A DNA stretch of 64,000 nt, taken from Escherichia phage vB_EcoM_PhAPEC2. Made by a program: the position numbers and the translations under genes. The stretch lies in the sequence record NC_024794.1; one strand, given 5' to 3'. Shown in pieces: positions 8,136 through 47,031 of this stretch (position 1 is its first letter; each line of letters starts with the position of its first letter). The notes beneath the pieces were generated by a model that was not told where the DNA came from, made no database searches, and saw only the letters and a list, made by a program, of their open reading frames with translations.

Positions 8136-8699
8136 TTATTTACCTAGTTTAGTTATTATAGCTTCGGCAGCAGCTTTTAGCTTAGATGCAGTGTTAATAC
8201 GATTTTTAATTTCAGTATACGCATCGCCAAGAACATCAAGGCTATCAGAATAAACACTTACACTATTGCGTTCGCTATTTGAAATAGAACCTTTAGTTTT
8301 ACGATCAAAATCAGTGTACACGTCTTGAAGATCACGGGCTGCCTTCTTTGCATCATCCAATGCGTCAAGAGCTTTATTCAAAGCATTGACATATTTTTTA
8401 GTGTCAAACATATTCTTAGAAATTTTAACAGGTGCACGTTCAGGAGTAGCTAAGGCGGATTTAGGAACCTGCGTGCCAGATGCCAGTTTCTTAGAAATTT
8501 TGAAAAACGCTTTATTGAAACTATTTTCTTGACTCATCGTAAAAGAACTAGTATCGATGTTATACATTTCAATAGCTTTAGCTTTCCACTTAAGAAAATC
8601 GCCACGGTCTTTTGGATCCAAGTGGAAGAATACTTTAGTAAGATCTGCTTCAGATGGTAATTTTGCTGCTTCGGTTAAAAATTCGGCATAGGTTTTCAT
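8136..8699 (-). CDS. Internal-protein-like (capsid-targeted) protein, 187 aa
   Basis: N-terminus MKTYAEFLTE|A matches the IP capsid-targeting sequence and gp21 L-x-E cleavage pattern; followed by a rho-independent terminator. Confidence 0.6.
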   Translation of the reverse strand: MKTYAEFLTEAAKLPSEADLTKVFFHLDPKDRGDFLKWKAKAIEMYNIDTSSFTMSQENSFNKAFFKISKKLASGTQVPKSALATPERAPVKISKNMFDTKKYVNALNKALDALDDAKKAARDLQDVYTDFDRKTKGSISNSERNSVSVYSDSLDVLGDAYTEIKNRINTASKLKAAAEAIITKLGK

Positions 8700-8789
8700 T
8701 TAAAATCCTTGAAATAATTTATCGGTTTGTTATTAATTATTTATTACTTTGGTATTATCAGTAACAGCATTCTCCGAGTGAGTCAAACT

Positions 8790-8816
8790 AAAAAGCCCCA
8801 ACCTTTCGGAAGGGGC
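8790..8816 (-). terminator. Rho-independent terminator after ip-like gene
   Basis: GCCCC...GGGGC hairpin followed by a U-run; same element as 9332-9363. Confidence 0.6.
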
Positions 8817-8822: not shown

Positions 8823-9287
8823 TTATTTAATTTGTTTAGCAGACCAGATACGGTCTTTAATAAGTTTTTGGATATCTTCAACATACTCAAGGCTATGAGC
8901 GTGAGGATTATCTTTGAAGCTATGTGCTCGTGCCAGTTTCTGGCCTTCTGTTTTGATTACTAAAAGCTCTTTAAGAATTGCTTCATACTTAGAAATAATT
9001 CCTTTGGCGATATTTTTTTCTTGAGCGGCTTTAGGGTCCGCTTTTGGCACAGGTGCTTTACCTGTAGCTTTCTGGAACAATTCACCTGATGCAGCTAGGC
9101 TTTTAAAAACTCGGCTAACAGTATTAGCATTAGTAAAACCTTCGGCTTTAAAATCTCTAATAAAACGGAAACGTTCTTCATCAGAGGCGTCTTTGTAAGA
9201 ATATTTACCTGCTTGAATTGCTGCAATCGCAGCGGCTTTTACATCTGAACTAGATTGTTCAGTCAAAAATTCAGCGTATGATTTCAT
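8823..9287 (-). CDS. Internal-protein-like (capsid-targeted) protein, 154 aa
   Basis: N-terminus MKSYAEFLTE|Q; same terminator hairpin downstream as the neighbouring ip-like gene. Confidence 0.6.
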   Translation of the reverse strand: MKSYAEFLTEQSSSDVKAAAIAAIQAGKYSYKDASDEERFRFIRDFKAEGFTNANTVSRVFKSLAASGELFQKATGKAPVPKADPKAAQEKNIAKGIISKYEAILKELLVIKTEGQKLARAHSFKDNPHAHSLEYVEDIQKLIKDRIWSAKQIK

Positions 9288-9331
9288 GTTGCTTTTCCTA
9301 AGTTAATTAACTTATCTATTTATTATTATGC

Positions 9332-9363
9332 CAAAAAAAAAGCCCCAACCTTTCGGAAGGGGC
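9332..9363 (-). terminator. Rho-independent terminator closing the tRNA/small-RNA transcription unit
   Basis: Same hairpin as 8790-8816 followed by nine U. Confidence 0.65.
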
Positions 9364-9365: not shown

Positions 9366-9520
9366 TGCCTTGCGGCAACCTTGTCGGGGTTCCACCTGCT
9401 AAGGCAAGTGTTTGTACGAAACGCCGGGATTCGAACCCGGTTATTAAGTAGTTGACGCTACTCAATATTTTTAAAAGGCCATATCTCGACCATATCCGAA
9501 CGTTCCGTCAAAAACGCTAC
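9366..9520 (-). ncRNA. tRNA-like structured RNA (T4 rnaC/rnaD-like?)
   Basis: Canonical T-arm CCGGGTTCGAATCCCGG (plus 9424-9440) and a 7-bp acceptor-like pairing (CGGAACG/CGTTTCG), but no canonical D or anticodon arm; 310-nt ORF-free interval ending in the terminator at 9332-9363. Confidence 0.3.
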
Positions 9521-9675
9521 TCGGCTTACGGCAAAGATATTTCCTCGAATCGATAATTCGGTGCGCCGTTTCTGCTGTGATGTAAGGGGATATTAACAAA
9601 TCGTAAAGATTTATTAAGACCAGTCCTTACTCAGGGAACATCAGTCCGACGACTTACCGGTAGCGACCCGGCTTC

Positions 9676-10020
9676 TTATTTTGACATATCATCAATTTGC
9701 TCTCGACGCCGACGCCATAGATTAATCACTTCATTACCACATTCGGCGTTTGGTATATGACGGCAATAATATAATGATTCGCGTTTCTGGAACCGATGTT
9801 GCAATGGGATTTCGTTTAAAAGGTCTTTACGGTCAAAGTATTCAAAACTAGTTAACCCAGAACGATTTTTAATGAACTTCCAATGTCCAAATTCATTTTG
9901 AACATAGATGTAATCGGCATGCTGATACAACGAATTAATCAATCGGTCTGAAATAACTGTATCATGTTCGTTAAAATAAAACGTTAAATCATGAACTACT
10001 AAGTAAACATTACCTTTCAT
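9676..10020 (-). CDS. Hypothetical protein (114 aa) in the tRNA region
   Basis: ORF with a GAGGAAA Shine-Dalgarno, 20 nt downstream of the tRNA-Arg 3' end. Confidence 0.5.
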   Translation of the reverse strand: MKGNVYLVVHDLTFYFNEHDTVISDRLINSLYQHADYIYVQNEFGHWKFIKNRSGLTSFEYFDRKDLLNEIPLQHRFQKRESLYYCRHIPNAECGNEVINLWRRRREQIDDMSK

Positions 10021-10039
10021 ATTTTCCTCACTTATTAAA

Positions 10040-10115
10040 TGGTCGAGACAGTAGGGATCGAACCTACGACCTAGGACTTAGAAGGTCCTTGCTCTTCCTT
10101 CTGAGCTATGCCTCG
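10040..10115 (-). tRNA. tRNA-Arg (anticodon TCT)
   Basis: Hand-folded cloverleaf: acceptor CGAGGCA/TGTCTCG, anticodon loop CTTCTAA, T-arm GTAGGTTCGATCCCTAC, CCA encoded. Confidence 0.8.
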
Positions 10116-10119
10116 TATT

Positions 10120-10194
10120 TGGCGGACGTGCATGGATTCGAACCATGGGCCAATTGATTAACAGTCAACTGCTCTACCACTGAGCTACACATCC
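10120..10194 (-). tRNA. tRNA-Asn (anticodon GTT)
   Basis: Acceptor GGATGTG/CACGTCC, D-arm GCTCAGTGGTAGAGC, anticodon loop CTGTTAA, T-arm CATGGTTCGAATCCATG, CCA encoded. Confidence 0.75.
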
Positions 10195-10198
10195 AAAT

Positions 10199-10273
10199 TG
10201 GTGGCCCTGGCTGGTTTCGATCCAGCTACCTATCAGTTATGAGCTGACAGCTCTCCCATTGAGCTACAGGGCC
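10199..10273 (-). tRNA. tRNA with anticodon CAT (Met, or Ile if lysidine-modified)
   Basis: Perfect acceptor GGCCCTG/CAGGGCC, anticodon loop CTCATAA, CCA encoded. Confidence 0.7.
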
Positions 10274-10335
10274 TAAATAACTTTCTATTATGAAAGGCAC
10301 TTTAGAGCACCTTTGGTAATAGAGGGTATGAATTA

Positions 10336-10362
10336 ATAATAACACATAATTCTTAAAGCAAA
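10336..10362 (-). promoter_or_regulatory. Putative T4-type middle promoter for the tRNA cluster
   Basis: Minus strand reads MotA box TTGCTTTA, 12-bp spacer, TATTAT; about 60 nt upstream of the tRNA cluster. Confidence 0.4.
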
Positions 10363-10868
10363 TCAATCATTTTAACAGTCGGCAAAACGATTTCTTCTTC
10401 AATATAAGCAAATTCGACACGTTCAACTACACGCAAGAAATCATAATCATAATATTCAGAAGCATGGCCAAGAATATCAGTGAGACCTTCTGATACCAAA
10501 TATCCGTTCTCACGGAACAGGTCAAATACACGTGATTCGTCTTCTTCAGATTTATTGCCGAGGTCGACTTCAATATCAAAGACCTTTTTAATGAATTCTG
10601 GATAAAGCTGGTCTGAGAACAGTCCTTCAACCAAGTATTCATAGATTAAAAGCGAGCAATCACTGAATAGTGTATTACCACAGTAACGTTCAGCTTTAGT
10701 GCTGGAATGACGACTCTTAAATTTCTTCAAGAGATATTTAAACTGCTGGAGCTCATGCTCTTCCACACCAAATAATGTTTTGGTTTTATAGTTGTCACCA
10801 TCATTTTCGTAGGTAGTGACATCAATTACGTAGCCCTTAGGAATTGTACTGCCTAAACAAATATTCAT
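10353..10868 (-). CDS. Hypothetical early protein (171 aa)
   Basis: ORF in a coupled operon. Confidence 0.5.
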   Translation of the reverse strand: MNICLGSTIPKGYVIDVTTYENDGDNYKTKTLFGVEEHELQQFKYLLKKFKSRHSSTKAERYCGNTLFSDCSLLIYEYLVEGLFSDQLYPEFIKKVFDIEVDLGNKSEEDESRVFDLFRENGYLVSEGLTDILGHASEYYDYDFLRVVERVEFAYIEEEIVLPTVKMIDLL

Positions 10869-10872
10869 TTAC

Positions 10873-11163
10873 TCACCGTACCATATTAATGTAATTATAT
10901 TCAATGCAACGTAATTTCAAAGGATTCTTGAAAATATCATATTCAAGAGGGCCTTTTTCTGTTTCAATAAAGAAATCAAAGTTAACTGTGTTAAATTTAT
11001 CATCTTCACAGAGTAATTTAACTTGCGAAGATGAACGGTCGATATAAACCTTTTCAACCTCAAAGTTAGTCAGAATACCATAGTCATTAACTAGTGCTTT
11101 AGCTGCACGTTGATCGCTTTCATATCCATTCTCGACAGATTTTACTTTAGCATAAAGAATCAT
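10873..11163 (-). CDS. Hypothetical early protein (96 aa)
   Basis: ORF; start overlaps the upstream stop (ATGA). Confidence 0.45.
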   Translation of the reverse strand: MILYAKVKSVENGYESDQRAAKALVNDYGILTNFEVEKVYIDRSSSQVKLLCEDDKFNTVNFDFFIETEKGPLEYDIFKNPLKLRCIEYNYINMVR

Positions 11164-11540
11164 GAGTGTTCCACCACTTCAAAGGTATGAGCATCAACAA
11201 TATGATACCAGTCAAAATTTTCTTCTGCGTTTTTATAAATTTCGCGAAGAGCCTCAACAGTTTTTCCTGTAGCAACAAGGTCGTCAATACCACCAAGAGG
11301 ATAACAGTCATAACCAGCAAACAGAAGGAAATTAATAGTTTCTGTAGGTTCTGGATGCAGAACTCCGTTATCGTCTACCACTTCAAAGAAAGTGTAAGAA
11401 GGAGTACAAGTTTTAATCCAGGCCCATGCTTGAGCCGCTGAATCAAATGGTCTGCGTATCAAACGACAATCAGGGTCTTTAGAAGGATTTGCTTCAAAAT
11501 CCGCATATACATGATATTTCATTTTACTCACCTTTTGCAA
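11160..11540 (-). CDS. Hypothetical early protein (about 120 aa)
   Basis: ORF; two alternative ATG starts (MQKVSK / MKYHVY). Confidence 0.45.
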   Translation of the reverse strand: MQKVSKMKYHVYADFEANPSKDPDCRLIRRPFDSAAQAWAWIKTCTPSYTFFEVVDDNGVLHPEPTETINFLLFAGYDCYPLGGIDDLVATGKTVEALREIYKNAEENFDWYHIVDAHTFEVVEHS

Positions 11541-11730
11541 TTTTATCCATAACGATAGCGATTAAGCCGATTAGAAATGCTACTACCAATGAGATAGAGT
11601 TTTCAGTTGTTGTCAGTAGTCCACAAATGAATCCTACAAACATCGAAAAACTAAAAGCCATTGAAGCAATTACTACAGCAACATTACGAATCAGTTCAGC
11701 GCGTTTCATTTTATTTCTCCATTTACTCAT
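11524..11730 (-). CDS. Small membrane protein (62-68 aa)
   Basis: Two hydrophobic segments; the likely start is the second ATG (MKRAEL, GGAG Shine-Dalgarno); early promoter cassette 11747-11775 upstream. Confidence 0.45.
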   Translation of the reverse strand: MSKWRNKMKRAELIRNVAVVIASMAFSFSMFVGFICGLLTTTENSISLVVAFLIGLIAIVMDKIAKGE

Positions 11731-11746
11731 TTGTTTTGATAGGACT

Positions 11747-11775
11747 ACTATAACATAGTCCTATCGTGTTGTAAA
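11747..11775 (-). promoter_or_regulatory. Early promoter cassette (PeSL-like)
   Basis: Third copy of the TAGGACTA palindrome cassette: TTTACA, 17 bp, TATAGT. Confidence 0.6.
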
Positions 11776-11779
11776 CTAC

Positions 11780-12067
11780 TTACAGAAGAGTTTTTGCAAT
11801 AATTTTAAGCTGAGCTACAGAAATATGCTTAGCTTTAAACAGTGCGGTCTCTTCAGCCGGAGAGATAACAATAGTAGCGCCGTCTTTCTTAGCAGACCAT
11901 CCGTCCCCTAAGTAAACAGTACCTTTTACTTCTTCACCGTCAACCAGACTAATCATTGGTTTACCCTCACGTCCTTTATTTGTTTTAATAACTTCAGAAG
12001 TAAGGGATGCTTCGGTCAGAGTAGAAACGTTAGCAACAGGTGATATAAATTCTTTATAGGTTTTCAT
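11780..12067 (-). CDS. Internal protein I-like (capsid-targeted), 95 aa
   Basis: N-terminus MKTYKEFIS... with LTE at residues 17-19; same size and position as T4 ipI next to 57B; own early promoter at 12102-12130. Confidence 0.6.
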   Translation of the reverse strand: MKTYKEFISPVANVSTLTEASLTSEVIKTNKGREGKPMISLVDGEEVKGTVYLGDGWSAKKDGATIVISPAEETALFKAKHISVAQLKIIAKTLL

Positions 12068-12101
12068 TTTATTTCCTTGAGGCTGTTTATTTGATAGGAT
12101 G

Positions 12102-12130
12102 ATAGTATCACACCATCATCCTTATGTAAA
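12102..12130 (-). promoter_or_regulatory. Early promoter cassette upstream of ipI-like gene
   Basis: Minus strand: TTTACA, 17 bp, TGaTACTAT, with inverted repeat AGGATGAT/ATCATCCT. Confidence 0.55.
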
Positions 12131-12144
12131 CTGTTTTGTGAAAA

Positions 12145-12830
<686 letters not shown>

Positions 12831-12834
12831 TTTA

Positions 12835-13569
12835 TTACCTTAAGATTTTTTCAATTTTAGAATAAAGCTCTTCTAAAGAGCCGTCGTTTGTAATAACTAA
12901 ATCGCCTTCTTCAATAGGCAACCCAGCTTCTGTAATATGTTTATCAGTGGATTCCGTACCAGAGCGAACCACATGAATAACTGTAGCACCCATCGCTCTA
13001 GCGGTTTCCATTTCATGGACTTGGCGTGTATCGGTCACAACGTAGTAATCGAAATCACTTCCAATATAATCCATATAGTTTAATGCAAAAAGCTTAACCC
13101 AATACATACGGTCAAATAAATTAACGACAACATCCGTACCGAGGGCTTGCATAAGACGGCGGATTGACCATGTGTCGTTGATATTATTTATAGCTTCACG
13201 CAGGGCTTCGTACGGTTTAATATCTAGATATGAATATCCACCTTCTAGTGATGATAATACGTTAACACCGTTAATTGGCAGGTATTGTCGTTGTAAATAA
13301 ATTAGCGTTTCTTCCATTAATTCAATAACATCCAATTTATTGAGATTTAATGGTGTTTCACGGTCGTATCCAATGCCTTCAAAGTATTCATATTTCAACT
13401 CGGTGAATACATCCGGGTTTTCGGCATGTTTACGCTCCCAAGCTATTGCTAGAGCGTCTTTAATTGGATATGCTAATTGATATTTTATGGATTTAAAGTT
13501 TGAATTGATGTAATCAGCAGTAGTGTCTTTACCACTACGTTTGATGCCGCTTAAAAAGATTAGCTCCAT
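12835..13569 (-). CDS. 1: dNMP kinase
   Basis: MELIFLSGIKRSGKDTTADY... P-loop; near-identical to T4 gp1. Confidence 0.95.
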   Translation of the reverse strand: MELIFLSGIKRSGKDTTADYINSNFKSIKYQLAYPIKDALAIAWERKHAENPDVFTELKYEYFEGIGYDRETPLNLNKLDVIELMEETLIYLQRQYLPINGVNVLSSLEGGYSYLDIKPYEALREAINNINDTWSIRRLMQALGTDVVVNLFDRMYWVKLFALNYMDYIGSDFDYYVVTDTRQVHEMETARAMGATVIHVVRSGTESTDKHITEAGLPIEEGDLVITNDGSLEELYSKIEKILR

Positions 13570-33854: not shown

Positions 33855-36171
<2,317 letters not shown>

Positions 36172-36198
36172 AAATAAAGCAAATTAAGAGGAATTAAA

Positions 36199-38181
36199 AT
36201 GGCACTTCTCTCTCCGGGCGTTGAGCTCAAAGAAACTACCGTACAGAGTACTGTAGTTAATAACTCCACTGGTACTGCTGCCCTGGCTGGAAAATTCCAA
36301 TGGGGACCGGCATTCCAGATTAAACAAATCACTGATGAAGTTGCATTAGTTGATATGTTTGGTACTCCTAATACGGATACAGCAGATTATTTCATGTCTG
36401 CTATGAACTTCCTTCAATATGGTAACGACCTTCGTGTTGTACGCGCAGTCGATCGTGATACTGCTAAGAACTCATCTCCTGTAGCAGGTAATATTGAATT
36501 CACAATCTCTGCCACTGGTAGTAACTATGCGGTTGGTGATAAAATTATCGTTAAGTATTTGACCGAAACTGTTGAAGCAGATGGTTATGTCACTTCAGTT
36601 GATGTCGATGGTAAAATTCTTAACATTTATATCCCAACTGGTAAAATTATTGCTAAAGCGAAAGAAATCGGCGAATATCCTGAATTAGGTTCTAACTGGA
36701 CCGCCGAAGTTGCCAGTTCTTCTTCTGGACTCTCTGGCGTTATTACAATTGGTTCTATCGTAACCGATTCTGGTATTCTGTTAACTGAAGTTGAAACTTC
36801 TGAAGAAGCTATTACTTCTCTAACTTTCCAAGAATCTATTAAAAAATATGGCGTCCCGGGCGTAGTTGCTCTTTATCCTGGTGAACTTGGCGACCAGCTC
36901 GAAATTGAAATCGTATCTAAAGCAGAATATGACAAAGGTGCTTCGGCCCAGTTAAAAATTTATCCTGACGGTGGCACTCGTGCATCTACTGCTAAAGCAA
37001 TCTTTGGGTACGGCCCACAGACTGATGACCAATATGCAATTATCGTTCGTCGCAACGACGCGGTAGTCCAGAGCGTAGTTCTTTCTACTAAACGTGGTGA
37101 ACGCGATATTTATGGTAGCAATATCTTCATTGATGATTTCTTTGCTAAAGGCGCAAGCAATTATATTTTCGCTACGGCACAAGGTTGGCCAAAAGGTTTC
37201 TCTGGTGTAATCAAACTGAATGGTGGCTTATCATCTAATGAAACGGTTGAAGCCGGTGATTTAATGGAAGCTTGGGATTTGTTTGCTGACCGTGAATCGG
37301 TTAATGCACAGTTGTTTATTGCTGGTTCTTGTGCTGGTGAATCTTTAGAAGTTGCTTCTACAGTTCAGAAACATGTTGTAGCAATTGGTGATTCTCGTCA
37401 AGATTGCTTGGTTCTTTGCTCACCGCCACGTGCAACTATAGTCGGTATTCCTGTTAATCGTGCAGTTGATAATCTGGTTGATTGGCGTACAGCGTCAGGA
37501 ACTTACACTGATAATAACTTTAATATAAGTTCTACTTATGCTGCTATTGATGGTAACTATAAATATCAATATGACAAATATAACGATGTGAATCGTTGGG
37601 TTCCATTAGCTGCTGATATCGCCGGTCTTTGTGCTCGAACAGACAATATTTCTCAGCCTTGGATGTCTCCAGCCGGTTATAACCGTGGACAAATTCTTAA
37701 CGTTATTAAGCTTGCAATTGAAACTCGTCAAGCACAAAGAGATCGTTTGTACCAGGAAGCTATTAACCCTGTTACTGGTACCGGTGGTGATGGATATGTT
37801 CTGTATGGTGATAAAACTGCCACTTCTGTTCCTTCGCCATTTGACCGTATTAACGTACGTCGTTTGTTTAACATGGTTAAAACGAACATTGGTTCGGCAT
37901 CCAAATACCGCCTATTTGAATTGAACAACGCGTTTACCCGTTCTTCTTTCCGTACAGAGACTTCTCAATATCTACAGGGTATTAAAGCTCTTGGTGGTGT
38001 ATATAACTTTAAAGTTGTTTGTGATACTACCAATAACACCCCAGCAGTTATCGACCGTAATGAATTTGTAGCTACTTTCTACTTACAACCTGCCCGCTCG
38101 ATAAATTATATTACGTTGAACTTTGTAGCAACAGCAACTGGCGCTGATTTCGACGAACTGATTGGTGCTGTAGGTGGCTAA
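36199..38181 (+). CDS. 18: Tail sheath gp18
   Basis: 660 aa; MALLSPGVELKETTVQS... Confidence 0.97.
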   Translation: MALLSPGVELKETTVQSTVVNNSTGTAALAGKFQWGPAFQIKQITDEVALVDMFGTPNTDTADYFMSAMNFLQYGNDLRVVRAVDRDTAKNSSPVAGNIEFTISATGSNYAVGDKIIVKYLTETVEADGYVTSVDVDGKILNIYIPTGKIIAKAKEIGEYPELGSNWTAEVASSSSGLSGVITIGSIVTDSGILLTEVETSEEAITSLTFQESIKKYGVPGVVALYPGELGDQLEIEIVSKAEYDKGASAQLKIYPDGGTRASTAKAIFGYGPQTDDQYAIIVRRNDAVVQSVVLSTKRGERDIYGSNIFIDDFFAKGASNYIFATAQGWPKGFSGVIKLNGGLSSNETVEAGDLMEAWDLFADRESVNAQLFIAGSCAGESLEVASTVQKHVVAIGDSRQDCLVLCSPPRATIVGIPVNRAVDNLVDWRTASGTYTDNNFNISSTYAAIDGNYKYQYDKYNDVNRWVPLAADIAGLCARTDNISQPWMSPAGYNRGQILNVIKLAIETRQAQRDRLYQEAINPVTGTGGDGYVLYGDKTATSVPSPFDRINVRRLFNMVKTNIGSASKYRLFELNNAFTRSSFRTETSQYLQGIKALGGVYNFKVVCDTTNNTPAVIDRNEFVATFYLQPARSINYITLNFVATATGADFDELIGAVGG

Positions 38182-38194
38182 TAAGACGCCTGAT

Positions 38195-38212
38195 GGGCTA
38201 TTTCGGTAGCCC
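38195..38212 (+). terminator. Stem-loop GGGCUAU-UUCG-GUAGCCC after gp18
   Basis: 7-bp stem with one G-U pair and UUCG loop. Confidence 0.5.
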
Positions 38213-38213
38213 A

Positions 38214-38221
38214 TATAAATA
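38214..38221 (+). promoter_or_regulatory. Late promoter (TATAAATA), possibly for gp19
   Basis: Exact consensus between gp18 and gp19; 73-nt leader. Confidence 0.45.
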
Positions 38222-38293
38222 TACTATATCGTTTAAAAATTAATTCTATGGGCATCCGGTTAATCCTAAGCCCATATTACTACAGAGGCTAAT

Positions 38294-38785
38294 ATGTTTG
38301 TAGATGACGTAACTCGTGCCTTCGAATCTGGTGATTTCGCTCGCCCTAACCTGTTCGAAGTAGAAATCTCTTATCTTGGGCAAAACTTTAGCTTCCAGTG
38401 TCGTGCTACGGCTCTTCCTGCTGCGATCGTTGAAAAGGTTCCTGTTTCTTATATGAACCGTAAAATTAACGTGGCCGGTGATCGTACATTCGATGATTGG
38501 ACTATTACAGTAATGAACGATGATGCTCATAGCATTCGTCAGAAATTTGTTGATTGGCAAGGTATTGCAGCAGGACAAGGTAATGAAATTACCGGTGGTA
38601 AACCTGCTGAATATAAAAAGTCTGCTATCGTTCGTCAATTTGCTCGTGATGCTAAAACAGTCACTAAAGAAGTTGAAATTGTCGGCTTGTGGCCTACTAA
38701 CGTTGGCGAAGTATCTCTTGACTGGGACAGCAATAACGAGATTGAAACGTTCGAAGTAACTCTTGCTCTTGATTGGTGGGAATAA
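38294..38785 (+). CDS. 19: Tail tube gp19
   Basis: 163 aa as in T4. Confidence 0.95.
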   Translation: MFVDDVTRAFESGDFARPNLFEVEISYLGQNFSFQCRATALPAAIVEKVPVSYMNRKINVAGDRTFDDWTITVMNDDAHSIRQKFVDWQGIAAGQGNEITGGKPAEYKKSAIVRQFARDAKTVTKEVEIVGLWPTNVGEVSLDWDSNNEIETFEVTLALDWWE

Positions 38786-38792
38786 TCTTGTT

Positions 38793-38806
38793 GGGGAGAA
38801 ATCCCC
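38793..38806 (+). terminator. Stem-loop GGGGA-GAAA-UCCCC after gp19
   Basis: GNRA-tetraloop hairpin just after the gp19 stop. Confidence 0.4.
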
Positions 38807-38833
38807 AGCTTCCCGTGATGACGGAGAAGTCCA

Positions 38834-38841
38834 TATAAATA
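38834..38841 (+). promoter_or_regulatory. Late promoter (TATAAATA) for gp20
   Basis: Consensus 29 nt upstream of the portal ATG. Confidence 0.65.
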
Positions 38842-38869
38842 TAACTATAATTCCCATTCGGAGAATACA

Positions 38870-40441
38870 ATGAAATTTAATATCTTAAGTTTGTTTGCTC
38901 CATGGGCAAAAATGGACGAACGTGATTACAAAGACCAAGAAAAAGAAAATTTAGAATCGATCACCTCACCAAAATTAGATGACGGCGCTAAAGAATACGA
39001 AGTATCTGAAAATGAAGCACAGCAAACATATAATGCTATGTTTCAGAGAATGTTCGGTAGTCAAGAACCAGGGCTCAAATCAACCCGTGAATTAATCGAT
39101 ACGTATCGAAATTTGATGACGAACTATGAAGTGGATAATGCAGTCTCTGAAATAGTTTCCGATGCTATTGTATATGAAGATGATACAGAAGTCGTTTCTA
39201 TAAATTTAGACAACACAAAATTTAGTCCAAATATAAAATCAATGGTGTTGGATGAATTTAACGAAGTGTTGAATCATTTATCTTTCCAACGTAAAGGTTC
39301 AGACCATTTTAGGCGTTGGTATGTAGATTCTCGAATTTTCTTCCATAAAATTATTGACCCTAAACGCCCTAAAGAAGGTATTAAAGAGCTTCGTCGTTTA
39401 GACCCACGTCAAGTTCAATATGTCCGTGAAGTTATTACAACCACTGAAGCCGGTGTTAAAATAGTCAAGGGTTATAAAGAATATTTCATTTATGACACAT
39501 CACACGAATCTTATGCTTGTGATGGACGCATATATGAAGCTGGCACAAAAATAAAAATCCCTAAAGCCGCGATTGTTTATGCCCATTCTGGTTTAGTCGA
39601 TTGTTGTGGTAAAAATATCATTGGTTATTTGCATCGGGCTATTAAGCCGGCGAACCAATTAAAACTTCTTGAAGACGCCGTCGTAATTTATCGTATTACT
39701 CGTGCTCCCGATCGTCGTGTATGGTACGTTGATACAGGTAATATGCCTTCAAGAAAAGCAGCAGAACATATGCAACATGTTATGAATACGATGAAAAACC
39801 GTATTGCATATGATGCTACTACAGGCAAGATTAAAAACCAGCAGCATATTATGTCGATGACCGAAGATTATTGGTTACAACGACGTGATGGTAAAGCAGT
39901 AACAGAAGTTGATACATTACCAGGTGCAGATAATACTGGAAATATGGAAGATGTACGTTGGTTCCGTAATGCGCTTTATATGGCTTTACGTATTCCTATT
40001 ACCCGTATTCCAAGTGACCAAGGTGGTATACAGTTTGATGCTGGTACTTCTATTACACGAGATGAATTGACATTTGGCAAATTTATTCGTGAGCTGCAAC
40101 ATAAATTTGAAGAGATATTCCTAGACCCGCTTAAAACCAATTTAATTCTTAAAGGAATTATTACAGAAGATGAGTGGAATGATGAAATAAATAATATTAA
40201 GATAAAATTTCATCGGGATAGTTATTTCTCGGAATTAAAGGATGCTGAGATTCTGGAGCGTCGCATTAATATGCTTCAGATGGCCGAACCATTTATTGGT
40301 AAATATATTTCTCACAGAACAGCTATGAAAGATATTCTTCAGATGTCTGACGAGGAAATTGAACAAGAGGCTAAGCAAATTGAAGAAGAGTCGAAAGAGG
40401 CTCGTTTCCAAGACCCCGACCAAGAACAAGAGGATTTTTAA
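38870..40441 (+). CDS. 20: Portal vertex protein gp20
   Basis: 523 aa (T4 524); order. Confidence 0.95.
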
Positions 40442-40674
40442 TGGACGATTTAATTCAAGCTATTAAATCAAACGACCTCGTTGCTACTCGAAAGTTTTTT
40501 GAAAGTGCAATGGCAGAAAAAACGGTTCGTTTGATTGAAGCACGCAAAGCAGAAATCGCTTCTCAATTTTTGATTGAAGGCGAAGAACCTGAAGAAGAAG
40601 AAAAGAACGCTTCGGAAGACGACGCTGATGAAGGCGATGACGACGAAGACGAAGATGATGAGGACGATGAATAA
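40441..40674 (+). CDS. 67: Prohead core protein gp67
   Basis: 77 aa with acidic tail; position. Confidence 0.8.
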
Positions 40675-41099
40675 TGTATCTTATCCCTGAATCTTATGAA
40701 TTGGTACTCGAAAATGTCGAAGCACTTATTCCTGAAGCACAGGGCCGAATCGATGCATTGTCTTCTGCTCTCGATATTGACGATATAAATACTATTATCG
40801 AGAACATGCTTGAAACTGAAACGGATTTAGCTGTTGCAATGGCTTCCATTATTAATGAAGAACAGTTAAATGAGTTTATCGTTAAACATGTTTCTTCTCG
40901 TGGTGAAGTCACTCGCACTAAAGACCGTAAAACTCGTGAACGTAACGCGTTCCAAACAACTGGTCTTTCTAAAGCAAAACGTAGACAAATCGCTCGTAAG
41001 GTCGTTAAAGCTAAAAAAGCTAACCCTTCAGGCCAAGTTAAAGGCTTGCGTAAGCGTAAAAAAGCTCTTAAACGTCGTAAAGCATTAGGATTAAGCTAA
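40674..41099 (+). CDS. 68: Prohead core protein gp68
   Basis: 141 aa as in T4. Confidence 0.8.
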
Positions 41100-41740
41100 T
41101 GAATAAACCCGAGTTACTTATTGAAACTTGGGGTCAACCCGGTGAGATTATTGATGGCGTTCCAATGTTGGAATCTCATGATGGAAAAGATTCTGGCTTA
41201 AAACCAGGGCTTTATATAGAAGGTATTTTTCTTCAGGCAGAGGTTGTTAACCGAAATAAACGTTTATATCCTAAACGCGTTTTAGAAAAAGCGGTAAGTG
41301 ACTATATTAAAGAACAAGTCGCAACCAAACAAGCCCTTGGAGAATTAAACCATCCACCTCGTGCAAATGTTGACCCCATGCAAGCCGCTATCATTATTGA
41401 AGATATGTGGTGGAAAGGAAACGATGTATATGGACGTGCTAGAATTATTGAAGGCGACCATGGTCCCGGCGATAAATTAGCCGCTAATATACGAGCTGGT
41501 TGGATTCCAGGTGTTTCCTCTCGTGGTCTTGGTTCTTTAACCGACACCAATAAAGGGTACCGTATCGTGAACGAAGGATTTAAATTAACCGTCGGCGTAG
41601 ATGCCGTATGGGGACCTTCTGCTCCAGATGCTTGGGTTACTCCTAAACAAATATCAGAATCAGAAAATTCGGTGGAAATCACCAAAAACAGTGCTGACGA
41701 AGCATTTAAAGCTCTCGCAGAGAGTTTAAAAGCATTATAA
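41099..41740 (+). CDS. 21: Prohead protease gp21
   Basis: 213 aa; position between 68 and 22. Confidence 0.9.
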   Translation: MNKPELLIETWGQPGEIIDGVPMLESHDGKDSGLKPGLYIEGIFLQAEVVNRNKRLYPKRVLEKAVSDYIKEQVATKQALGELNHPPRANVDPMQAAIIIEDMWWKGNDVYGRARIIEGDHGPGDKLAANIRAGWIPGVSSRGLGSLTDTNKGYRIVNEGFKLTVGVDAVWGPSAPDAWVTPKQISESENSVEITKNSADEAFKALAESLKAL

Positions 41741-41774
41741 ATAATAATGTAATCTTAAACCACAGGACACTAAA

Positions 41775-42587
41775 ATGATCAAAGAACAACTTTTGAAAGA
41801 AGCTCAGAACATCGAGACTTCAGTTGCTCTTAATAGTGTTTTCGAATCAGTAGAACTGTCTCCGGACGTTAAAGCTAATTTCAGCACTGTATTCGAAGCC
41901 ACCGTTAAGCAGGAAGCAGTCAAACTGGCTGAATCTCATATCAAAGCCATCGCCGAAAAGGCCGAAGAAGAAGTTGAAAAGGCTAAAGAAGATGCTGAAG
42001 AGAAAGCTGATAAAAAATTGACTGAACAAGCTTCTAAATTCCTAGACCATCTTGCAAAAGAATGGCTCGCAGAAAACCAAATCGCAGTTGATAAAGGCAT
42101 TAAAGCTGATTTGTTCGAATCCATGCTTGGTGGTCTGAAAGAACTGTTTGTTGAACATAACGTTGTTGTTCCAGAAGAATCTGTAGATGTTGTAGCAGAA
42201 ATGGAAGAAGAGCTGGCCGAACATAAAGAAGAAACCGCTCGTTTGTTCGAAGAAGTTACCAAACGTGATGCATATATCAATTACGTTCAGCGTGAAACCG
42301 CTATTAATGAAAGCGTAAAAGACCTGACTGAATCTCAGAAAGAAAAAGTTATTGGCCTGGTTGAAGGTATGGATTATTCTGACGCATTTGGTACTAAGTT
42401 AACTGCTATTGTAGAAATGGTTAAAGGTTCTACTAAAGAAGAAGCCGCTATTACCGAAAATATAAATACAGTTGACAATGACGCTGCCGGTCTTAATTTT
42501 GTTGCCGAAGCAGTTGACACTACCACAACTCAGGTAGAACAGAATTCTAATGTAAGTTTATATGCGAAAGTCGCATCTCGTTTCTAA
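41775..42587 (+). CDS. 22: Major prohead scaffold gp22
   Basis: 270 aa, acidic and helical; order. Confidence 0.9.
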   Translation: MIKEQLLKEAQNIETSVALNSVFESVELSPDVKANFSTVFEATVKQEAVKLAESHIKAIAEKAEEEVEKAKEDAEEKADKKLTEQASKFLDHLAKEWLAENQIAVDKGIKADLFESMLGGLKELFVEHNVVVPEESVDVVAEMEEELAEHKEETARLFEEVTKRDAYINYVQRETAINESVKDLTESQKEKVIGLVEGMDYSDAFGTKLTAIVEMVKGSTKEEAAITENINTVDNDAAGLNFVAEAVDTTTTQVEQNSNVSLYAKVASRF

Positions 42588-42604
42588 TTTAAAGGTTAAC
42601 ACAA

Positions 42605-44173
42605 ATGACTACTATCAAAACTAAAGCTCAGCTCGTAGACAAATGGAAAGAACTGCTGGAAGGTGAAGGCCTGCCGGAAATCGCTAATAGCAAGCAGGCT
42701 ATTATCGCTAAAATCTTCGAAAACCAGGAAAAAGATTTCGAAGTATCCCCTGAATATAAAGACGAGAAAATCGCTCAGGCATTTGGTTCTTTCTTGACCG
42801 AAGCTGAAATTGGTGGTGACCACGGTTATAACGCTCAGAACATCGCAGCAGGTCAAACCTCTGGTGCAGTAACCCAAATTGGGCCGGCAGTTATGGGTAT
42901 GGTTCGTCGTGCTATTCCTAATCTGATCGCTTTTGATATTTGTGGTGTTCAGCCTATGAACAGCCCTACCGGTCAGGTATTTGCTCTCCGTGCAGTATAT
43001 GGTAAAGACCCTATCGCTGCTGGCGCTAAAGAAGCTTTCCATCCGATGTATGCCCCAGACGCGATGTTCTCTGGACAGGGTGCTGCTAAGAAATTCCCAG
43101 CTCTGGCTGCCGACACTACTACTGTTGTAGGTGATATCTATACTCACTTCTTCCAAGAAACTGGTACTGTATATCTGCAAGCTTCTGCTGTCGTAACACT
43201 TGATTCTAGTGCGACTGATGCAGCTAAATTAGATGCCGAAGTTAAGAAACAAATGGAAGCTGGTGCACTGGTAGAAATCGCTGAAGGTATGGCTACTTCT
43301 ATCGCTGAACTCCAGGAAGGTTTCAATGGTTCTACCGATAATCCATGGAATGAAATGGGCTTCCGTATCGATAAACAAGTTATCGAAGCTAAATCTCGCC
43401 AGCTGAAAGCTGCTTACTCTATCGAATTAGCACAAGACCTCCGTGCAGTACACGGTATGGATGCTGATGCTGAACTGAGCGGTATTCTGGCTACAGAAAT
43501 TATGCTAGAAATCAACCGTGAAGTTGTTGATTGGATTAACTACTCGGCACAGGTTGGTAAATCTGGTATGACCCTGACTCCGGGTTCTAAAGCTGGCGTA
43601 TTTGACTTCCAGGACCCGATTGATATCCGTGGTGCTCGTTGGGCCGGTGAAAGCTTTAAATCTCTATTGTTCCAGATTGATAAAGAAGCAGTTGAAATTG
43701 CTCGTCAAACCGGTCGTGGTGAAGGTAACTTCATTATCGCTTCCCGTAACGTAGTTAACGTACTGGCTTCAGTTGATACTGGTATTTCTTACGCTGCACA
43801 GGGTCTGGCTTCTGGTTTTAATACCGACACTACTAAGTCTGTATTTGCAGGTGTACTTGGTGGTAAATACCGCGTATACATCGACCAGTATGCTAAACAG
43901 GATTACTTCACCGTTGGTTACAAAGGCGCTAACGAAATGGATGCAGGTATTTACTATGCTCCTTACGTTGCACTTACCCCACTGCGTGGTTCCGATCCTA
44001 AGAACTTCCAGCCGGTAATGGGCTTTAAAACTCGTTACGGTATCGGTGTTAACCCGTTTGCTGAAAGTTCCCTGCAGGCTCCAGGTGCTCGCATCCAGTC
44101 CGGTATGCCGTCTATCCTGAACAGCCTTGGTAAGAACGCTTACTTCCGCCGTGTATATGTAAAAGGCATCTAA
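42605..44173 (+). CDS. 23: Major capsid protein gp23
   Basis: 522 aa; MTTIKTKAQLVDKWKELLEGEGLPEIANSKQ... Confidence 0.97.
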   Translation: MTTIKTKAQLVDKWKELLEGEGLPEIANSKQAIIAKIFENQEKDFEVSPEYKDEKIAQAFGSFLTEAEIGGDHGYNAQNIAAGQTSGAVTQIGPAVMGMVRRAIPNLIAFDICGVQPMNSPTGQVFALRAVYGKDPIAAGAKEAFHPMYAPDAMFSGQGAAKKFPALAADTTTVVGDIYTHFFQETGTVYLQASAVVTLDSSATDAAKLDAEVKKQMEAGALVEIAEGMATSIAELQEGFNGSTDNPWNEMGFRIDKQVIEAKSRQLKAAYSIELAQDLRAVHGMDADAELSGILATEIMLEINREVVDWINYSAQVGKSGMTLTPGSKAGVFDFQDPIDIRGARWAGESFKSLLFQIDKEAVEIARQTGRGEGNFIIASRNVVNVLASVDTGISYAAQGLASGFNTDTTKSVFAGVLGGKYRVYIDQYAKQDYFTVGYKGANEMDAGIYYAPYVALTPLRGSDPKNFQPVMGFKTRYGIGVNPFAESSLQAPGARIQSGMPSILNSLGKNAYFRRVYVKGI

Positions 44174-44197
44174 TCTTAATTGATTAAATCTTATTTT

Positions 44198-44215
44198 GGG
44201 AGACTTCGGTCTCCC
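44198..44215 (+). terminator. Stem-loop GGGAGAC-UUCG-GUCUCCC after gp23
   Basis: Same 18-nt hairpin as after gp8, followed by ATTTTT. Confidence 0.65.
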
Positions 44216-44225
44216 ATTTTTGGTT

Positions 44226-44495
44226 TTATTTCTGTGCAATTTCGATGTAAGTTTTCAAAATATTTTGCCAATTAGGCATACCTTCTTGGACATATGCTGG
44301 AGAACCGTCTTTGTTTTTGAATGATGCAAGTTTATCAGTGGCCCAATAACCTTTAGCTCGAGCTTCAGAATCAACTTTCATCCATACTTTGTTGAAGGCA
44401 TTACCATTAACTTTTGCACCATATTTTTCTACTAACTTAACTGCTTCAGCTTCCAGAACTTTTAAAGTATCTCGTAAGAAACGTGCTTTAGTCAT
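44226..44495 (-). CDS. Hypothetical early protein (89 aa) inserted between gp23 and gp24
   Basis: Minus-strand ORF with GAGGAG Shine-Dalgarno and its own early promoter cassette (44526-44554); T4 carries segD at this position. Confidence 0.55.
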   Translation of the reverse strand: MTKARFLRDTLKVLEAEAVKLVEKYGAKVNGNAFNKVWMKVDSEARAKGYWATDKLASFKNKDGSPAYVQEGMPNWQNILKTYIEIAQK

Positions 44496-44525
44496 TTTGT
44501 TTACTCCTCTGTAGTTGATAAGTCT

Positions 44526-44554
44526 ATAGTATCACATACCAAATACGTTGTAAA
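44526..44554 (-). promoter_or_regulatory. Early promoter cassette (sigma70-like, PeSL-like)
   Basis: Minus strand: TTTACA, 17 bp, TGnTACTAT; 32 nt (44504-44535) identical to 7277-7308. Confidence 0.6.
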
Positions 44555-44561
44555 CAATCTT

Positions 44562-44569
44562 TATAAATA
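44562..44569 (+). promoter_or_regulatory. Late promoter (TATAAATA) for gp24
   Basis: Consensus 28 nt upstream of the gp24 ATG. Confidence 0.6.
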
Positions 44570-44596
44570 ATCTATATCACATAAGGAAAAAATGCA

Positions 44597-45880
44597 ATGA
44601 GTAAAATCCAAAAATTATTGCGTGAATCTACAACGTCTACTAGCAACTCAATTGGTCGCCCAAATCTCGTTGCTTTGACTCGCGCTACGACTAAATTAAT
44701 ATATTCTGACATTGTAGCAACACAAAGAACTAATCAACCTGTTGCTGCTTTTTATGGTATCAAATATCTTAACCCAGATAACGAATTCACATTTAAAACT
44801 GGTGCTACTTATGCGGGTGAAGTTGGATATGTAGACCGAGAAAAAATTACTGAGCTCACAGAAGAATCAAAAGTCACACTAAATAAAGGCGATTTTTTCA
44901 AATATAATAATATCGTCTATAAAGTGTTAGAAGATACACCATTTGCAGATATTCAAGAAAGTGATCTAGAATTAGCTCTTCAGATTGCAGTCGTTCATTT
45001 AAAGGTACGGTTATTTTCAGATGCAGCGGTAACAAGCAAATTTGAAAGCTCTGGTAGCGAAATTTCTGATGCAAGATTCCAGATTAATAAATGGCAAACT
45101 TCAGTCAAATCTCGTAAACTTAAAACCGGCCTCACGGTTGAATTAGCGCAAGATTTGGAAGCGAATGGATTTGATGCCCCTAACTTTTTAGAAGATTTGC
45201 TTGCTACTGAAATGGCTGATGAAATTAATAAAGATATTCTTCAGTCTTTAATTACTGTATCGAAACGTTATAAAGTTACTGGAATTACTGACACTGGATT
45301 TATTGACTTGAGCTATGCATCCGCTCCAGAAGCAGGTCGTTCATTATATCGAATGGTGTGTGAAATGGTATCACACATTCAAAAAGAGACAACTTATACT
45401 GCGACGTTTTGTGTAGCCTCAGCTCGTGCAGCTGCTATTCTTGCTGCTTCTGGTTGGTTAAAACATAAGCCAGAAGATGACAAGTATCTTTCACAAAATG
45501 CTTATGGATTCTTGGCAAATGGATTACCTCTTTACTGCGATACTAACAGTCCGTTAGATTATGTTATTGTGGGTGTTGTAGAAAATATCGGCGAAAAAGA
45601 AATTGTAGGGTCCATCTTTTATGCTCCATACACTGAAGGAGTAGATTTAGATGACCCGGAACATGTTGGTGCTTTTAAAGTTGTAGTTGATCCAGAAAGC
45701 TTGCAACCGTCTATCGGATTACTGGTTAGATATGCTTTATCAGCAAATCCTTACACAGTAGCAAAAGACGAAAAAGAAGCGAGAATAATTGATGGCGGGG
45801 ACATGGATAAAATGGCAGGACGTTCAGACTTGTCTGTTTTACTCGGTGTTAAATTGCCTAAAATTATTATAGATGAATAA
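44597..45880 (+). CDS. 24: Capsid vertex protein gp24
   Basis: 427 aa as in T4; gp23-like fold. Confidence 0.95.
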   Translation: MSKIQKLLRESTTSTSNSIGRPNLVALTRATTKLIYSDIVATQRTNQPVAAFYGIKYLNPDNEFTFKTGATYAGEVGYVDREKITELTEESKVTLNKGDFFKYNNIVYKVLEDTPFADIQESDLELALQIAVVHLKVRLFSDAAVTSKFESSGSEISDARFQINKWQTSVKSRKLKTGLTVELAQDLEANGFDAPNFLEDLLATEMADEINKDILQSLITVSKRYKVTGITDTGFIDLSYASAPEAGRSLYRMVCEMVSHIQKETTYTATFCVASARAAAILAASGWLKHKPEDDKYLSQNAYGFLANGLPLYCDTNSPLDYVIVGVVENIGEKEIVGSIFYAPYTEGVDLDDPEHVGAFKVVVDPESLQPSIGLLVRYALSANPYTVAKDEKEARIIDGGDMDKMAGRSDLSVLLGVKLPKIIIDE

Positions 45881-45890
45881 ACAAAAAAAA

Positions 45891-45906
45891 GGGACCGTAA
45901 GGTCCC
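45891..45906. terminator. Bidirectional terminator between gp24 and rnlB
   Basis: GGGACC-GUAA-GGUCCC hairpin flanked by an A-run and a T-run. Confidence 0.6.
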
Positions 45907-45913
45907 TTTTTCG

Positions 45914-46912
45914 TTATGATACTAATTCAATCCATGCAGGACGCAGAACATCTTGCACCATTCGGACTAATTCTTTCTTAACAAGATTCGGATTATCAGA
46001 TGATGTTAATACAATACCTTCACGAGAAGTTTCTTCCAGAATATCTTGAACAGTTAATCCCATCACTTTGCCAAAATCTTTTGGCGTTACAGCCCCAATC
46101 TTAGAAATCACATTATTAACACGATTTAATGTAACATAACAAGCTAGAACATCAAGCAGGTTTTTGTCAATTTCTGTTAATGGAACCTGAGTTTTAATAG
46201 GCTTATCAGACTTTTTCTTTTCACTGAATTTAGAGTTCTTGCACTTAATAGCTACACGAGTACCGTTTGGCAGCCATTTAGGGAAACAGGGCTTCAGAAC
46301 ATAACCTTCTGCCGTATTATCGCCAATAACATTAGCATCAAATACACAATTATTTGCTTCTACAAGGTCTTCTGACGCAGTAGCATTATAAGCGGCTAAG
46401 ACAGAATCAAGGTCGTTTGGAATCATGATAAGAGAATCAAATGTTCCACGTCCAAGCATTGGTGCCATTTTAAAACCGAATTCATTACAGAAATCTTGCA
46501 TTTCGTAATCGGTCAAATACGTATTATCACCACTTTCTGTATTGATAAGGATATCGAACACATAAAAATCTTTTTCACCGTAGTCAACACCTTTCTGGAT
46601 TCCACCACCAGCGAATTCACCGAATACTTGATATGATACGGCTCGAGCTGTGTACATGAATTCCTGAACGGCTTTAATAGCTTTATCATACTTCTTGAGT
46701 ACGATTTCATAACCATAAAAATCTTCTGCTGGAAGAATAGGGCCTGTGCGCTTGGCGCATGTGACGTTGTCACGTTCAATTATTAACGAGAAGTTAGTCC
46801 CATGGATTTTCTCACGTGCTACCCAAACACCAGTAGTCAAACCATTAGTGTAGAGTTTTTCAATAAACTTAGAGTTGTAGTGGTTTTCAAGACTGCTGTA
46901 TTTCTTAAACAT
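45914..46912 (-). CDS. rnlB: RNA ligase 2
   Basis: [21 protein letters not shown]...[10 protein letters not shown] (KxHGxN lysine); near-identical to T4 Rnl2. Confidence 0.95.
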
Positions 46913-47003
46913 AAATCACCATTATAAATAATAATATCAAAATAATTAGCAGAGACTCTATCTCTGGCCCGATGTTTAATTTGAATGGATAGAACCTAGA
47001 TTC

Positions 47004-47030
47004 ATTATACCATCAAAAAATGTAAAGCAT
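47004..47030 (-). promoter_or_regulatory. T4-type middle promoter upstream of rnlB
   Basis: Minus strand: MotA box ATGCTTTAC, 12 bp, TATAAT. Confidence 0.5.
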
Positions 47031-47031
47031 A

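Follow-up and report, generated by a model that had tools for sequence, protein, structure and literature searches.

A comparative structural model for the rnaD-rnaC pair of Escherichia phage vB_EcoM_PhAPEC2

Results

Homologues of T4 rnaD and rnaC reside downstream of a tRNA gene cluster

The small stable RNAs rnaD and rnaC, which have been described in bacteriophage T4 since the 1970s, are among the oldest phage non-coding RNAs known. Here we address their homologues in Escherichia phage vB_EcoM_PhAPEC2, using a 64,000-nt stretch of its genome (record NC_024794.1; this whole stretch is subsequently designated the window). Both RNAs are encoded on the minus strand, as are all features described below unless noted otherwise. 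The rnaD homologue (species 2 RNA) comprises approximately positions 9560-9679; it was delimited by alignment with T4 and is supported by the RNAalifold consensus and the minimum free energy (MFE) fold of the single sequence. It is followed by the spacer GAAUUA (9554-9559), the position of which derives from the T4 annotation, and by the rnaC homologue (species 1 RNA; 9415-9553), which measures 139 nt by equivalence with T4 and was located by T4 alignment, covariance model and MFE folding.

The window represents a T-even-type phage. A stretch of 451 bases that includes the interval matches 806 phage records, with Escherichia phage ST2 as the best match (99.3%). A base-for-base alignment was obtained between the interval and T4 rnaD (NC_000866 71053-71171) and rnaC (70908-71046), which the curated T4 record lists as two misc_RNAs downstream of tRNA-Arg, designated 'species 2 RNA' and 'species 1 RNA', respectively. 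The rnaC sequences are near-identical over the full 139 nt, the T4 rnaC region differing by a few point changes. The two loci share strand and order (rnaD, spacer, rnaC, trailer, terminator), with the tRNA cluster upstream; in the window rnaC is located 490 nt downstream of the tRNAs. T4 rnaD and its counterpart in the window do not differ in the 5' hairpin, in the closing helix (GUCGUCG/CGGCGCAC) or in the 3'-terminal GCGCACC, and they fold alike; the apical part of the long hairpin is what sets them apart. Annotations of rnaC or rnaD are also present on the matching stretch in the records of phages ATK47, RB27, T4T and Kha5h, and covariance model R1 returned a single match in the window, at 9412-9553 on the minus strand (158.8 bits). 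We are therefore confident that the interval is the T-even rnaD-rnaC pair with the anatomy modelled here, a judgement that covers identity and anatomy, not function. The locus as such is already known, and it is the structural model that may be new.

A preliminary description of the window, made from its sequence alone, had recognized a single tRNA-like structured RNA at 9366-9660 and favored an rnaC/rnaD identity. The alignment with T4 and the annotated relatives bear out this identity. The proposed boundaries lose the first ~12-19 nt of rnaD and exclude the terminator, and the structured region contains two RNAs rather than one. A tRNA mimic, listed there as an alternative, does not compete with the rnaC/rnaD identity because rnaC is itself tRNA-shaped. 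The interval is indeed devoid of longer reading frames: no open reading frame (ORF) of at least 60 aa is present in the stretch flanked by the ORFs that end at 9676 and start at 9287, and the ORFs found there, starting with TTG or ATG, encode 28-49 aa. The view that no canonical tRNA is encoded held as well, as ARAGORN called neither a tRNA nor a tmRNA in the interval and Rfam matched no family there at gathering score. The best hit of a permissive Rfam scan of the interval was tRNA-Sec with 17 bits and an E-value of 1.4, i.e. at chance level (gathering score 47).

rnaC is modelled as a four-way junction with the top half of a tRNA

For comparative analysis, 33 distinct rnaC sequences were aligned (alignment A3), comprising BLAST representatives as well as copies from IMG/VR and metagenomes. 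They cover at least nine genera, i.e. Tequatro-, Mosig-, Karam-, Kagamiyama-, Moon-, Teguna-, Kanagawa-, Gelderland- and Marfavirus. BLAST queries with the window, a Moonvirus copy and a Kanagawavirus copy yielded about 770-820 matching records; 806-821 phage records match the interval, some of them with an rnaC or rnaD annotation. A metagenome scan returned 57 stretches, 11 of which are rnaC, all near-identical to known types, while the rest are ordinary tRNAs. The covariance model R1 for rnaC was built from A3. Following a search of IMG/VR and GTDB genomes with a loose loop pattern, which drew chance matches and is no test of absence from bacteria, the covariance model retained one of at least 240 loci (L092), and this locus is located on a T4-like viral contig.

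In the model supported by A3, rnaC is a four-way junction with tRNA topology, composed of an acceptor stem, a T arm, a hairpin arm of 61-63 nt and a 10-bp arm. The model pairs 91.7% of cells in A3, as compared to 31-44% when the 3' partners are slid, and 18 pairs exhibit changes on both sides, a number that was equalled in none of 500 shuffles. The MFE fold of the window rnaC alone (-50.2 kcal/mol, z = -4.05) reproduces all comparative helices. Two variants of the long arm, types A and B, are distinguished below; the type A model of rnaC is 95% paired and the type B model 89%.

The acceptor stem consists of 7 bp and is formed by the extreme 5' and 3' ends of the mature RNA. Its 5' strand CGAUUCG (9546-9552) pairs with CGUUUCG (9423-9417), as indicated by covariation and independently by MFE prediction. 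At the third pair (A3 columns 4:139), 22 sequences have G-C and 11 have A-U. A tandem U.U is found at pairs 4 and 5 in 32 of the 33 sequences; in Yersinia phage fHe-Yen9-01 these two pairs are U-A and C-G, resulting in seven perfect pairs. The nucleotide 3' of the stem is U throughout A3 (9416 in the window) and is followed by N-C-A with invariant C-A. N can be A, C or U: U-ACA prevails and is also encoded in the window (ACA at 9415-9413, so that the 3' strand with its tail spans 9413-9423), while U-CCA occurs in six Marfavirus-type sequences and U-UCA in fHe-Yen9-01.

The T arm CCGGG-UUCGAAU-CCCGG carries a canonical T loop and occupies 9440-9424, in agreement with the perfect T arm noticed before. 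Its stem is 99.4% paired in A3 with compensatory changes at two pairs, the middle pair being G-C, U-A or A-U. The 11-mer GGTTCGAATCC of this arm occurs twice in the window, in rnaC and in tRNA-Asn, as compared to no occurrence in 100 shuffles. As no nucleotides intervene between the acceptor stem and the 5-bp T arm, both helices are presumably stacked as in tRNA. The segments UCGGUUCGAGGA and GGCC of rnaC are also invariant, or nearly so, in A3.

Thus rnaC shares with canonical and class II tRNAs (RF00005) the 7-bp acceptor stem, the 5-bp T stem, a T loop of the form UUCRANY (UUCGAAU), a discriminator-like nucleotide and (N)CA, as well as a position inside tRNA arrays. Unlike tRNA it contains the tandem U.U in the acceptor stem, a 61-63-nt hairpin at the place of the D loop and a 10-bp arm with a 6-nt loop at the anticodon/variable position. 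Neither a D arm nor a 5-bp anticodon stem with a 7-nt loop was detected in it by the comparative fold, by MFE folding or by the tRNA finders. From this model, lacking both D loop and anticodon loop, we infer that rnaC is non-decoding.

Two rnaC arms carry complementary loops and the longer arm occurs in two versions

The long arm measures 61 nt in the window (9481-9541) and was modelled by comparing 25 distinct arm sequences. From base to apex, it comprises helices P1' (9540-9535/9486-9481; compensatory changes at four of six pairs in type A), P2a (9532-9527/9494-9489) and P2b (9524-9521/9499-9496), the latter two according to the type A model, and hairpin P2c (9516-9512/9505-9501), which is 100% paired and exhibits compensatory changes at all five pairs in the full alignment. 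P2c carries the apical loop UUGACG (9511-9506). At the base of the arm, the MFE fold pairs AGG (9545-9543) with CCU (9478-9476), closing the four-way junction. A local 4-bp hairpin AGGA/UCUU behind the acceptor stem was discarded in favor of the long-range helix P1', which has compensatory changes. The other arm, P3 (9442-9467), forms a 10-bp stem (9467-9458/9451-9442) with compensatory changes at 8 of 10 pairs and exposes the loop CGUCAA (9457-9452).

The 6-nt loops of P2c and P3 (UUGACG:CGUCAA) are exactly complementary in all 33 sequences. Moreover, they switched jointly on two independent occasions: six Marfavirus-type sequences have UUGGCG:CGCCAA, and fHe-Yen9-01 has UUGAUG:CAUCAA. Judged from this covariation, the two loops can form a 6-bp kissing interaction, through which rnaC can become ring-closed.

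The long arm, flanked by the invariant AGGA and GGCC, occurs in two unrelated sequence versions. Type A is present in the window, T4, EcS1, Moon and several Karamvirus members, and type B in PEi20, Melville, Kosakonia phage 305, other Karam- and Moonvirus members and Marfavirus. Despite their unrelated sequences, all 25 distinct arms measure 61-63 nt and fold into a single irregular hairpin with the conserved loop at its apex. In type A, P1', P2a and P2b together are 99.4% paired; type B behaves likewise, save for a one-column misalignment in three sequences. The 5' 12 nt of rnaC, both loops and the 3' half are constant between the arm types. Both types were observed within Karamvirus (L005, L019, L086 and L087 versus L080 and L082) and within Moonvirus (L004 and L011 versus L007). 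As the types co-occur within genera while the remaining rnaC stays constant, the sequences suggest that recombination has swapped the long arm as a fixed-length module.

These data also bear on the idea that the interval represents a decayed tRNA pseudogene plus spacer, which lacks function and is transcribed merely owing to its location in a tRNA operon. The acceptor stem and T arm make a tRNA origin of rnaC plausible, there is no Rfam family, and the searched literature yielded no phenotype. However, decay is difficult to reconcile with conservation in at least nine genera, with the compensatory changes seen in all helices as well as in the tertiary loop-loop pairing, with an arm length held at 61-63 nt across two unrelated arm sequences, or with the near-invariance of UCGGUUCGAGGA and GGCC. 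In addition, the RNA is stable and abundant in T4 (PMC9697503), and a single-nucleotide polymorphism (SNP) arose convergently in the rnaD region on a semi-permissive host (PMC12685909). We consider a functionless pseudogene highly improbable.

An internal helix of rnaC is not conserved and has given rise to tRNA annotations

The acceptor-like helix in the preliminary description joined two strands about 90 nt apart. Such a helix exists, comprising 8 bp between ACGGAACG (9508-9501) and CGUUUCGU (9423-9416), but it shows no compensatory change in the 33 homologues. The role of 9508-9501 as acceptor partner could not be upheld: the conserved partner of 9423-9417 is 9552-9546 at the 5' end of rnaC, and according to A3 ACGGAACG (9501-9508) comprises part of the apical loop and the 3' strand of P2c. 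The internal helix and P2c are mutually exclusive because they share five columns.

Based on this helix, the 3' two-thirds of rnaC (9508-9416) could be read as a self-contained, odd tRNA with an 8-bp acceptor stem, a long insert and the T arm. The helix is perfect in the window and also underlies the weak tRNA-Sec match of Rfam; GenBank record MK327928 annotates a 94-nt tRNA-Lys(UUU) at this place (L008 1665-1758), and ARAGORN calls a 96-nt tRNA-Phe(GAA) in the homologous stretch of L092 (7816-7911). Comparison of the homologues contradicts this reading. Besides lacking compensatory changes, three of its eight pairs are unpaired in 7-19 sequences each, and its 5' strand is needed by P2c, in which all sequences pair and all five pairs covary. 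Phage fHe-Yen9-01 breaks three central pairs of the internal helix while its terminal acceptor stem becomes perfect. The would-be anticodon falls into the most variable segment (UUU, GAA, UAC and others), and the 5' end annotated in T4 is located 45 nt upstream of the helix. An odd tRNA thus has very little probability, and the 139-nt rnaC with terminal acceptor stem is the preferred structure. A further candidate, in which the sequence CUUUUAA (9477-9471) mimics the anticodon loop of tRNA-Lys as a decoy for an anticodon nuclease, was rejected, since it resides in the most variable part of rnaC.

Several phage records, with the hits H126, H147 and H216 among those concerned, call the 3' two-thirds of rnaC a 94-96-nt tRNA-Lys(UUU) or tRNA-Phe(GAA). 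In many records, CDSs for a 'hypothetical protein' are placed over rnaC and rnaD, one to four of them under the match. Small proteins might accordingly be encoded here, as the 28-49-aa ORFs on both strands and the many CDS annotations would imply. On the other hand, the two minus-strand ORFs within rnaC (49 and 42 aa) start with TTG, substitutions appear as paired stem changes with no codon pattern, the swap between arm types A and B wrecks any frame, and the curated T4 record has RNAs at this locus. The likelihood that the interval codes for small proteins is next to nil. The tRNA-Lys, tRNA-Phe and CDS calls over rnaC and rnaD are probably annotation errors.

rnaD is predicted to form two hairpins and has relatives outside the T4 group

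According to the modelled folds, rnaD is a separate RNA unrelated to rnaC, in which a short hairpin at the 5' end is followed by a single long, irregular one. RNAalifold and MFE folding agree on the 5' hairpin H1, GCCGG-GUCGCUA-CCGGU (9672-9656), and on the long hairpin (9653-9561), which is closed by GUCGUCG (9653-9647) and CGGCG-C-AC (9568-9561). RNAalifold analysis of 16 variants yielded 22 pairs, four of which have compensatory changes, at the closing pair of the 5' hairpin and in the middle helix of the long hairpin; the MFE fold of the window rnaD has the same shape (z = -3.16). Among the 16 variants the outer thirds are identical, while at least four different apical hairpins are interchangeable. 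The 5' limit of rnaD is provisional and follows the T4 annotation, by which rnaD extends into the stop codon of the ORF located upstream. The 5' end must differ here from that in T4, because this stop codon abuts the first rnaD hairpin.

The rnaD shape recurs in four variants of the middle region and in homologues from phages UPEC06, EnC15 and pzk-kv19. In Escherichia phage UPEC06 (Vequintavirinae) the homologue directly follows tRNA-Met (L331 1496-1593), is partly covered by a CDS annotated as hypothetical protein, and keeps the core, and both its 5' hairpin and its middle helix exhibit compensatory changes. In Karamvirus EnC15 and Jiaodavirus pzk-kv19, rnaD relatives are located between tRNA-Asn and tRNA-Asp. 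As relatives of the same shape occur outside the T4 group, these sequences suggest that rnaD is a separate family, more mobile than implied by the T4 annotation. In EnC15 (L332 780-916) and pzk-kv19 (L333 782-906), an unannotated stretch of ~130 nt containing the hairpin CGAAAGUUUACUUUCGG lies between the rnaD-like element and tRNA-Asp; it may be another structured RNA of tRNA clusters.

Two further ideas on rnaD were discarded. Its motifs CUGAUG and GAAAC are reminiscent of a hammerhead or kink-turn, but they lie on opposite sides of a two-way internal loop within a single long hairpin, with no third stem; Rfam gave no hammerhead match in rnaD, and a three-stem junction with CUGANGA and GAAA was not found. 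Pairing of the rnaD loop CGCUAC with GUAGCG in rnaC was dismissed as a 6-mer without covariation.

Terminator, trailer and neighboring genes

Downstream of the mature rnaC end, a trailer hairpin CACUUGC-CUUA-GCAGGUG (9393-9410) is present, which was observed exclusively in T4/Mosigvirus-type phages. It is followed by an intrinsic terminator (9333-9363), for which folding yields the GC-rich hairpin GCCCCUUCC-GAAA-GGUUGGGGC (9363-9342), succeeded by nine U residues (9341-9333). The strong terminator assumed previously is thus confirmed; a simple terminator scan of the interval missed this hairpin because of an internal U.U loop. The terminator stem has this U.U in the window, whereas T4 has G.U and A-U. 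An exact 27-nt copy of the hairpin sequence (9337-9363) is found 547 nt further downstream (8790-8816). Both copies are followed by similar A/T-rich spacers (9312-9330 and 8733-8751) and by ORFs starting with MK(S/T)YAEFLTE (8823-9287 and 8136-8699), and the N-terminal part of the first ORF weakly matches a family of internal virion proteins. The arrangement looks like the repeat-flanked, shuffled cassettes for internal head proteins of T-even phages.

Upstream, ARAGORN and Rfam agree on tRNA genes for Met (CAU; 10199-10273), Asn (GUU; 10120-10194) and Arg (UCU; 10040-10115), which together span 10040-10273. Between tRNA-Arg and rnaD, the window contains an ORF of 114 aa (9676-10020; phrog_3355, E 3e-50), as in RB69/Mosigvirus-type phages, whereas tRNA-Arg and rnaD are adjacent in T4. 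This arrangement is also annotated in phages ATK47 and AlbertHofmann. No T4 late-promoter motif was found just upstream of rnaD, on the minus strand from 9680 to 13185. The motif TATAAATA occurs 17 times in the window as compared to 8.9 expected, and 11 of these 17 are on the plus strand between 36 and 50 kb (36164-49405), consistent with a late-gene block.

Outside the T4/Mosigvirus group, rnaC mostly resides inside a tRNA array with tRNA-like spacing, the neighbors usually being tRNA-Trp and tRNA-Gly. It lies between tRNAs in Kagamiyama-, Moon-, Karam- and Gelderlandvirus and within the tRNA-gene region in Tegunavirus. This distribution is relevant for the possibility that rnaC and rnaD act merely in cis, as elements for processing or stability of the polycistronic tRNA transcript (RNase entry or 3' protection), with the stable products as by-products. 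Such a role would suit the 3'-terminal position of the T4-type pair in the cluster, immediately ahead of the terminator, the spacer between rnaD and rnaC, which resembles an endonuclease site, and the rnaD relatives that likewise come directly after a tRNA. However, a terminal protection element is superfluous in most genera, in which rnaC is located mid-array between tRNA-Trp and tRNA-Gly; a kissing-loop domain of fixed geometry is unnecessary for processing, and adjacent tRNAs are processed without such elements. A role confined to cis is therefore improbable.

Discussion

In this work we have modelled rnaC as an RNA that combines the acceptor stem and T arm of a tRNA with a second half closed by a loop-loop contact. 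In T4, rnaC and rnaD accumulate late in infection as stable RNAs, as detected by northern blot (PMC9697503), and their roles were still called unknown in 2010 (PMC3014915), 2022 (PMC9697503) and 2025 (PMC12685909). The 2025 study followed the adaptation of a T4-like phage to a semi-permissive E. coli strain, and every line acquired a convergent SNP in the rnaD region (PMC12685909).

How could these RNAs be generated? Presumably, rnaD and rnaC are cotranscribed with the tRNA genes, and the terminator hairpin with its nine U residues would end the unit. The A/U-rich, single-stranded spacer GAAUUA is a presumed cleavage site for an endonuclease of the RNase E type; in T4, RNase E cuts the precursor of species 2 and species 1 RNAs. 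The minihelix of acceptor stem and T arm could render rnaC a substrate for host enzymes that mature tRNAs: RNase P would generate the 5' end, whereupon the 3' end would be trimmed and possibly undergo CCA repair. Processing by tRNA enzymes would explain both the location in tRNA arrays and the stable accumulation.

What might the mature RNA do? Conceivably, rnaC mimics tRNA and is bound by a factor with specificity for the top half or 3' end of tRNA, a proposal we make tentatively and at clearly less than even odds. It is the most economical role, because an RNA without anticodon and with a rigid, ring-closed lower half cannot decode. The mimic would occupy either a host enzyme or a tRNA-directed defense toxin, and owing to the kissing-loop domain it would not enter decoding. 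In a more specific version, the arm at the anticodon position would be permanently 'read' by the complementary long-arm loop of the same or a second molecule, in the latter case hand in hand like phi29 pRNA, and rnaC, matured by RNase P and CCA repair, would serve as decoy or inhibitor, e.g. of a tRNA-directed anti-phage toxin, with rnaD as a second, independently mobile host-range RNA; this version we regard as doubtful.

Comparison with other RNAs illustrates the possibilities. Like tmRNA, rnaC combines the top half of a tRNA lacking an anticodon with additional RNA of tertiary structure, and is presumably processed by tRNA enzymes. Yet it is less than half the size of tmRNA and has no G3.U70, no reading frame for a tag and no H-type pseudoknots. 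An alanine identity as in tmRNA was dismissed, as position 3:70 is A-U or G-C, never G.U. With the pRNA of phage phi29, rnaC has in common that it is a phage RNA of ~120-170 nt with two loops in which complementarity rather than sequence is preserved, the covarying rnaC loops being 100% paired with two switches. There is no similarity in sequence or fold, however, and the pRNA loops pair between molecules to form a ring on the portal. As T4 DNA packaging in vitro is independent of RNA, membership in this class is unlikely. Bacterial YrlA also has a T arm and an acceptor-like stem on which tRNA enzymes likely act, whereas rnaC did not match any Y RNA of Rfam and no Ro-binding stem was recognised in it; E. 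coli is not known to possess Rsr. As alternatives to the mimic, rnaC could act purely in cis in processing or stability, form multimers through its loops like phi29 pRNA, or have no function.

Several points weigh against the structure and role favored here. Support for the acceptor stem comes from few independent events, i.e. one switch between G-C and A-U plus the fHe-Yen9-01 lineage, and the invariant AGG:CCU pairs derive solely from the energy model. The loop-loop pairing could join two molecules instead of closing one. The ends of rnaC and rnaD were transferred from the T4 annotation rather than from experiments in the window phage. According to that annotation, mature rnaC carries an extra 5' U and ends with U-A instead of CCA, so that CCA addition or charging would be hypothetical. 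A decoy would face competition from a very large pool of tRNAs. Finally, T4 deletions removing the region grow normally on laboratory hosts.

Neither rnaC nor rnaD has a family in Rfam, and in GenBank the rnaC locus often lacks an annotation, carries a 'hypothetical protein' or is miscalled as tRNA-Lys or tRNA-Phe of 94-96 nt. The covariation-supported structure of rnaC, with its acceptor stem, fixed arm and kissing loop, was not found in Rfam or in the accessible literature and may be new. The comparative fold makes an old question testable, as it specifies the acceptor stem, the constant length of one arm, a 6-bp contact between covarying loops and the 3' sequence U-N-C-A with its invariant U. 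Should rnaC indeed be a decoy and rnaD a host-range RNA, this would provide the first function for two 'orphan' RNAs of T4, about 50 years after their discovery.

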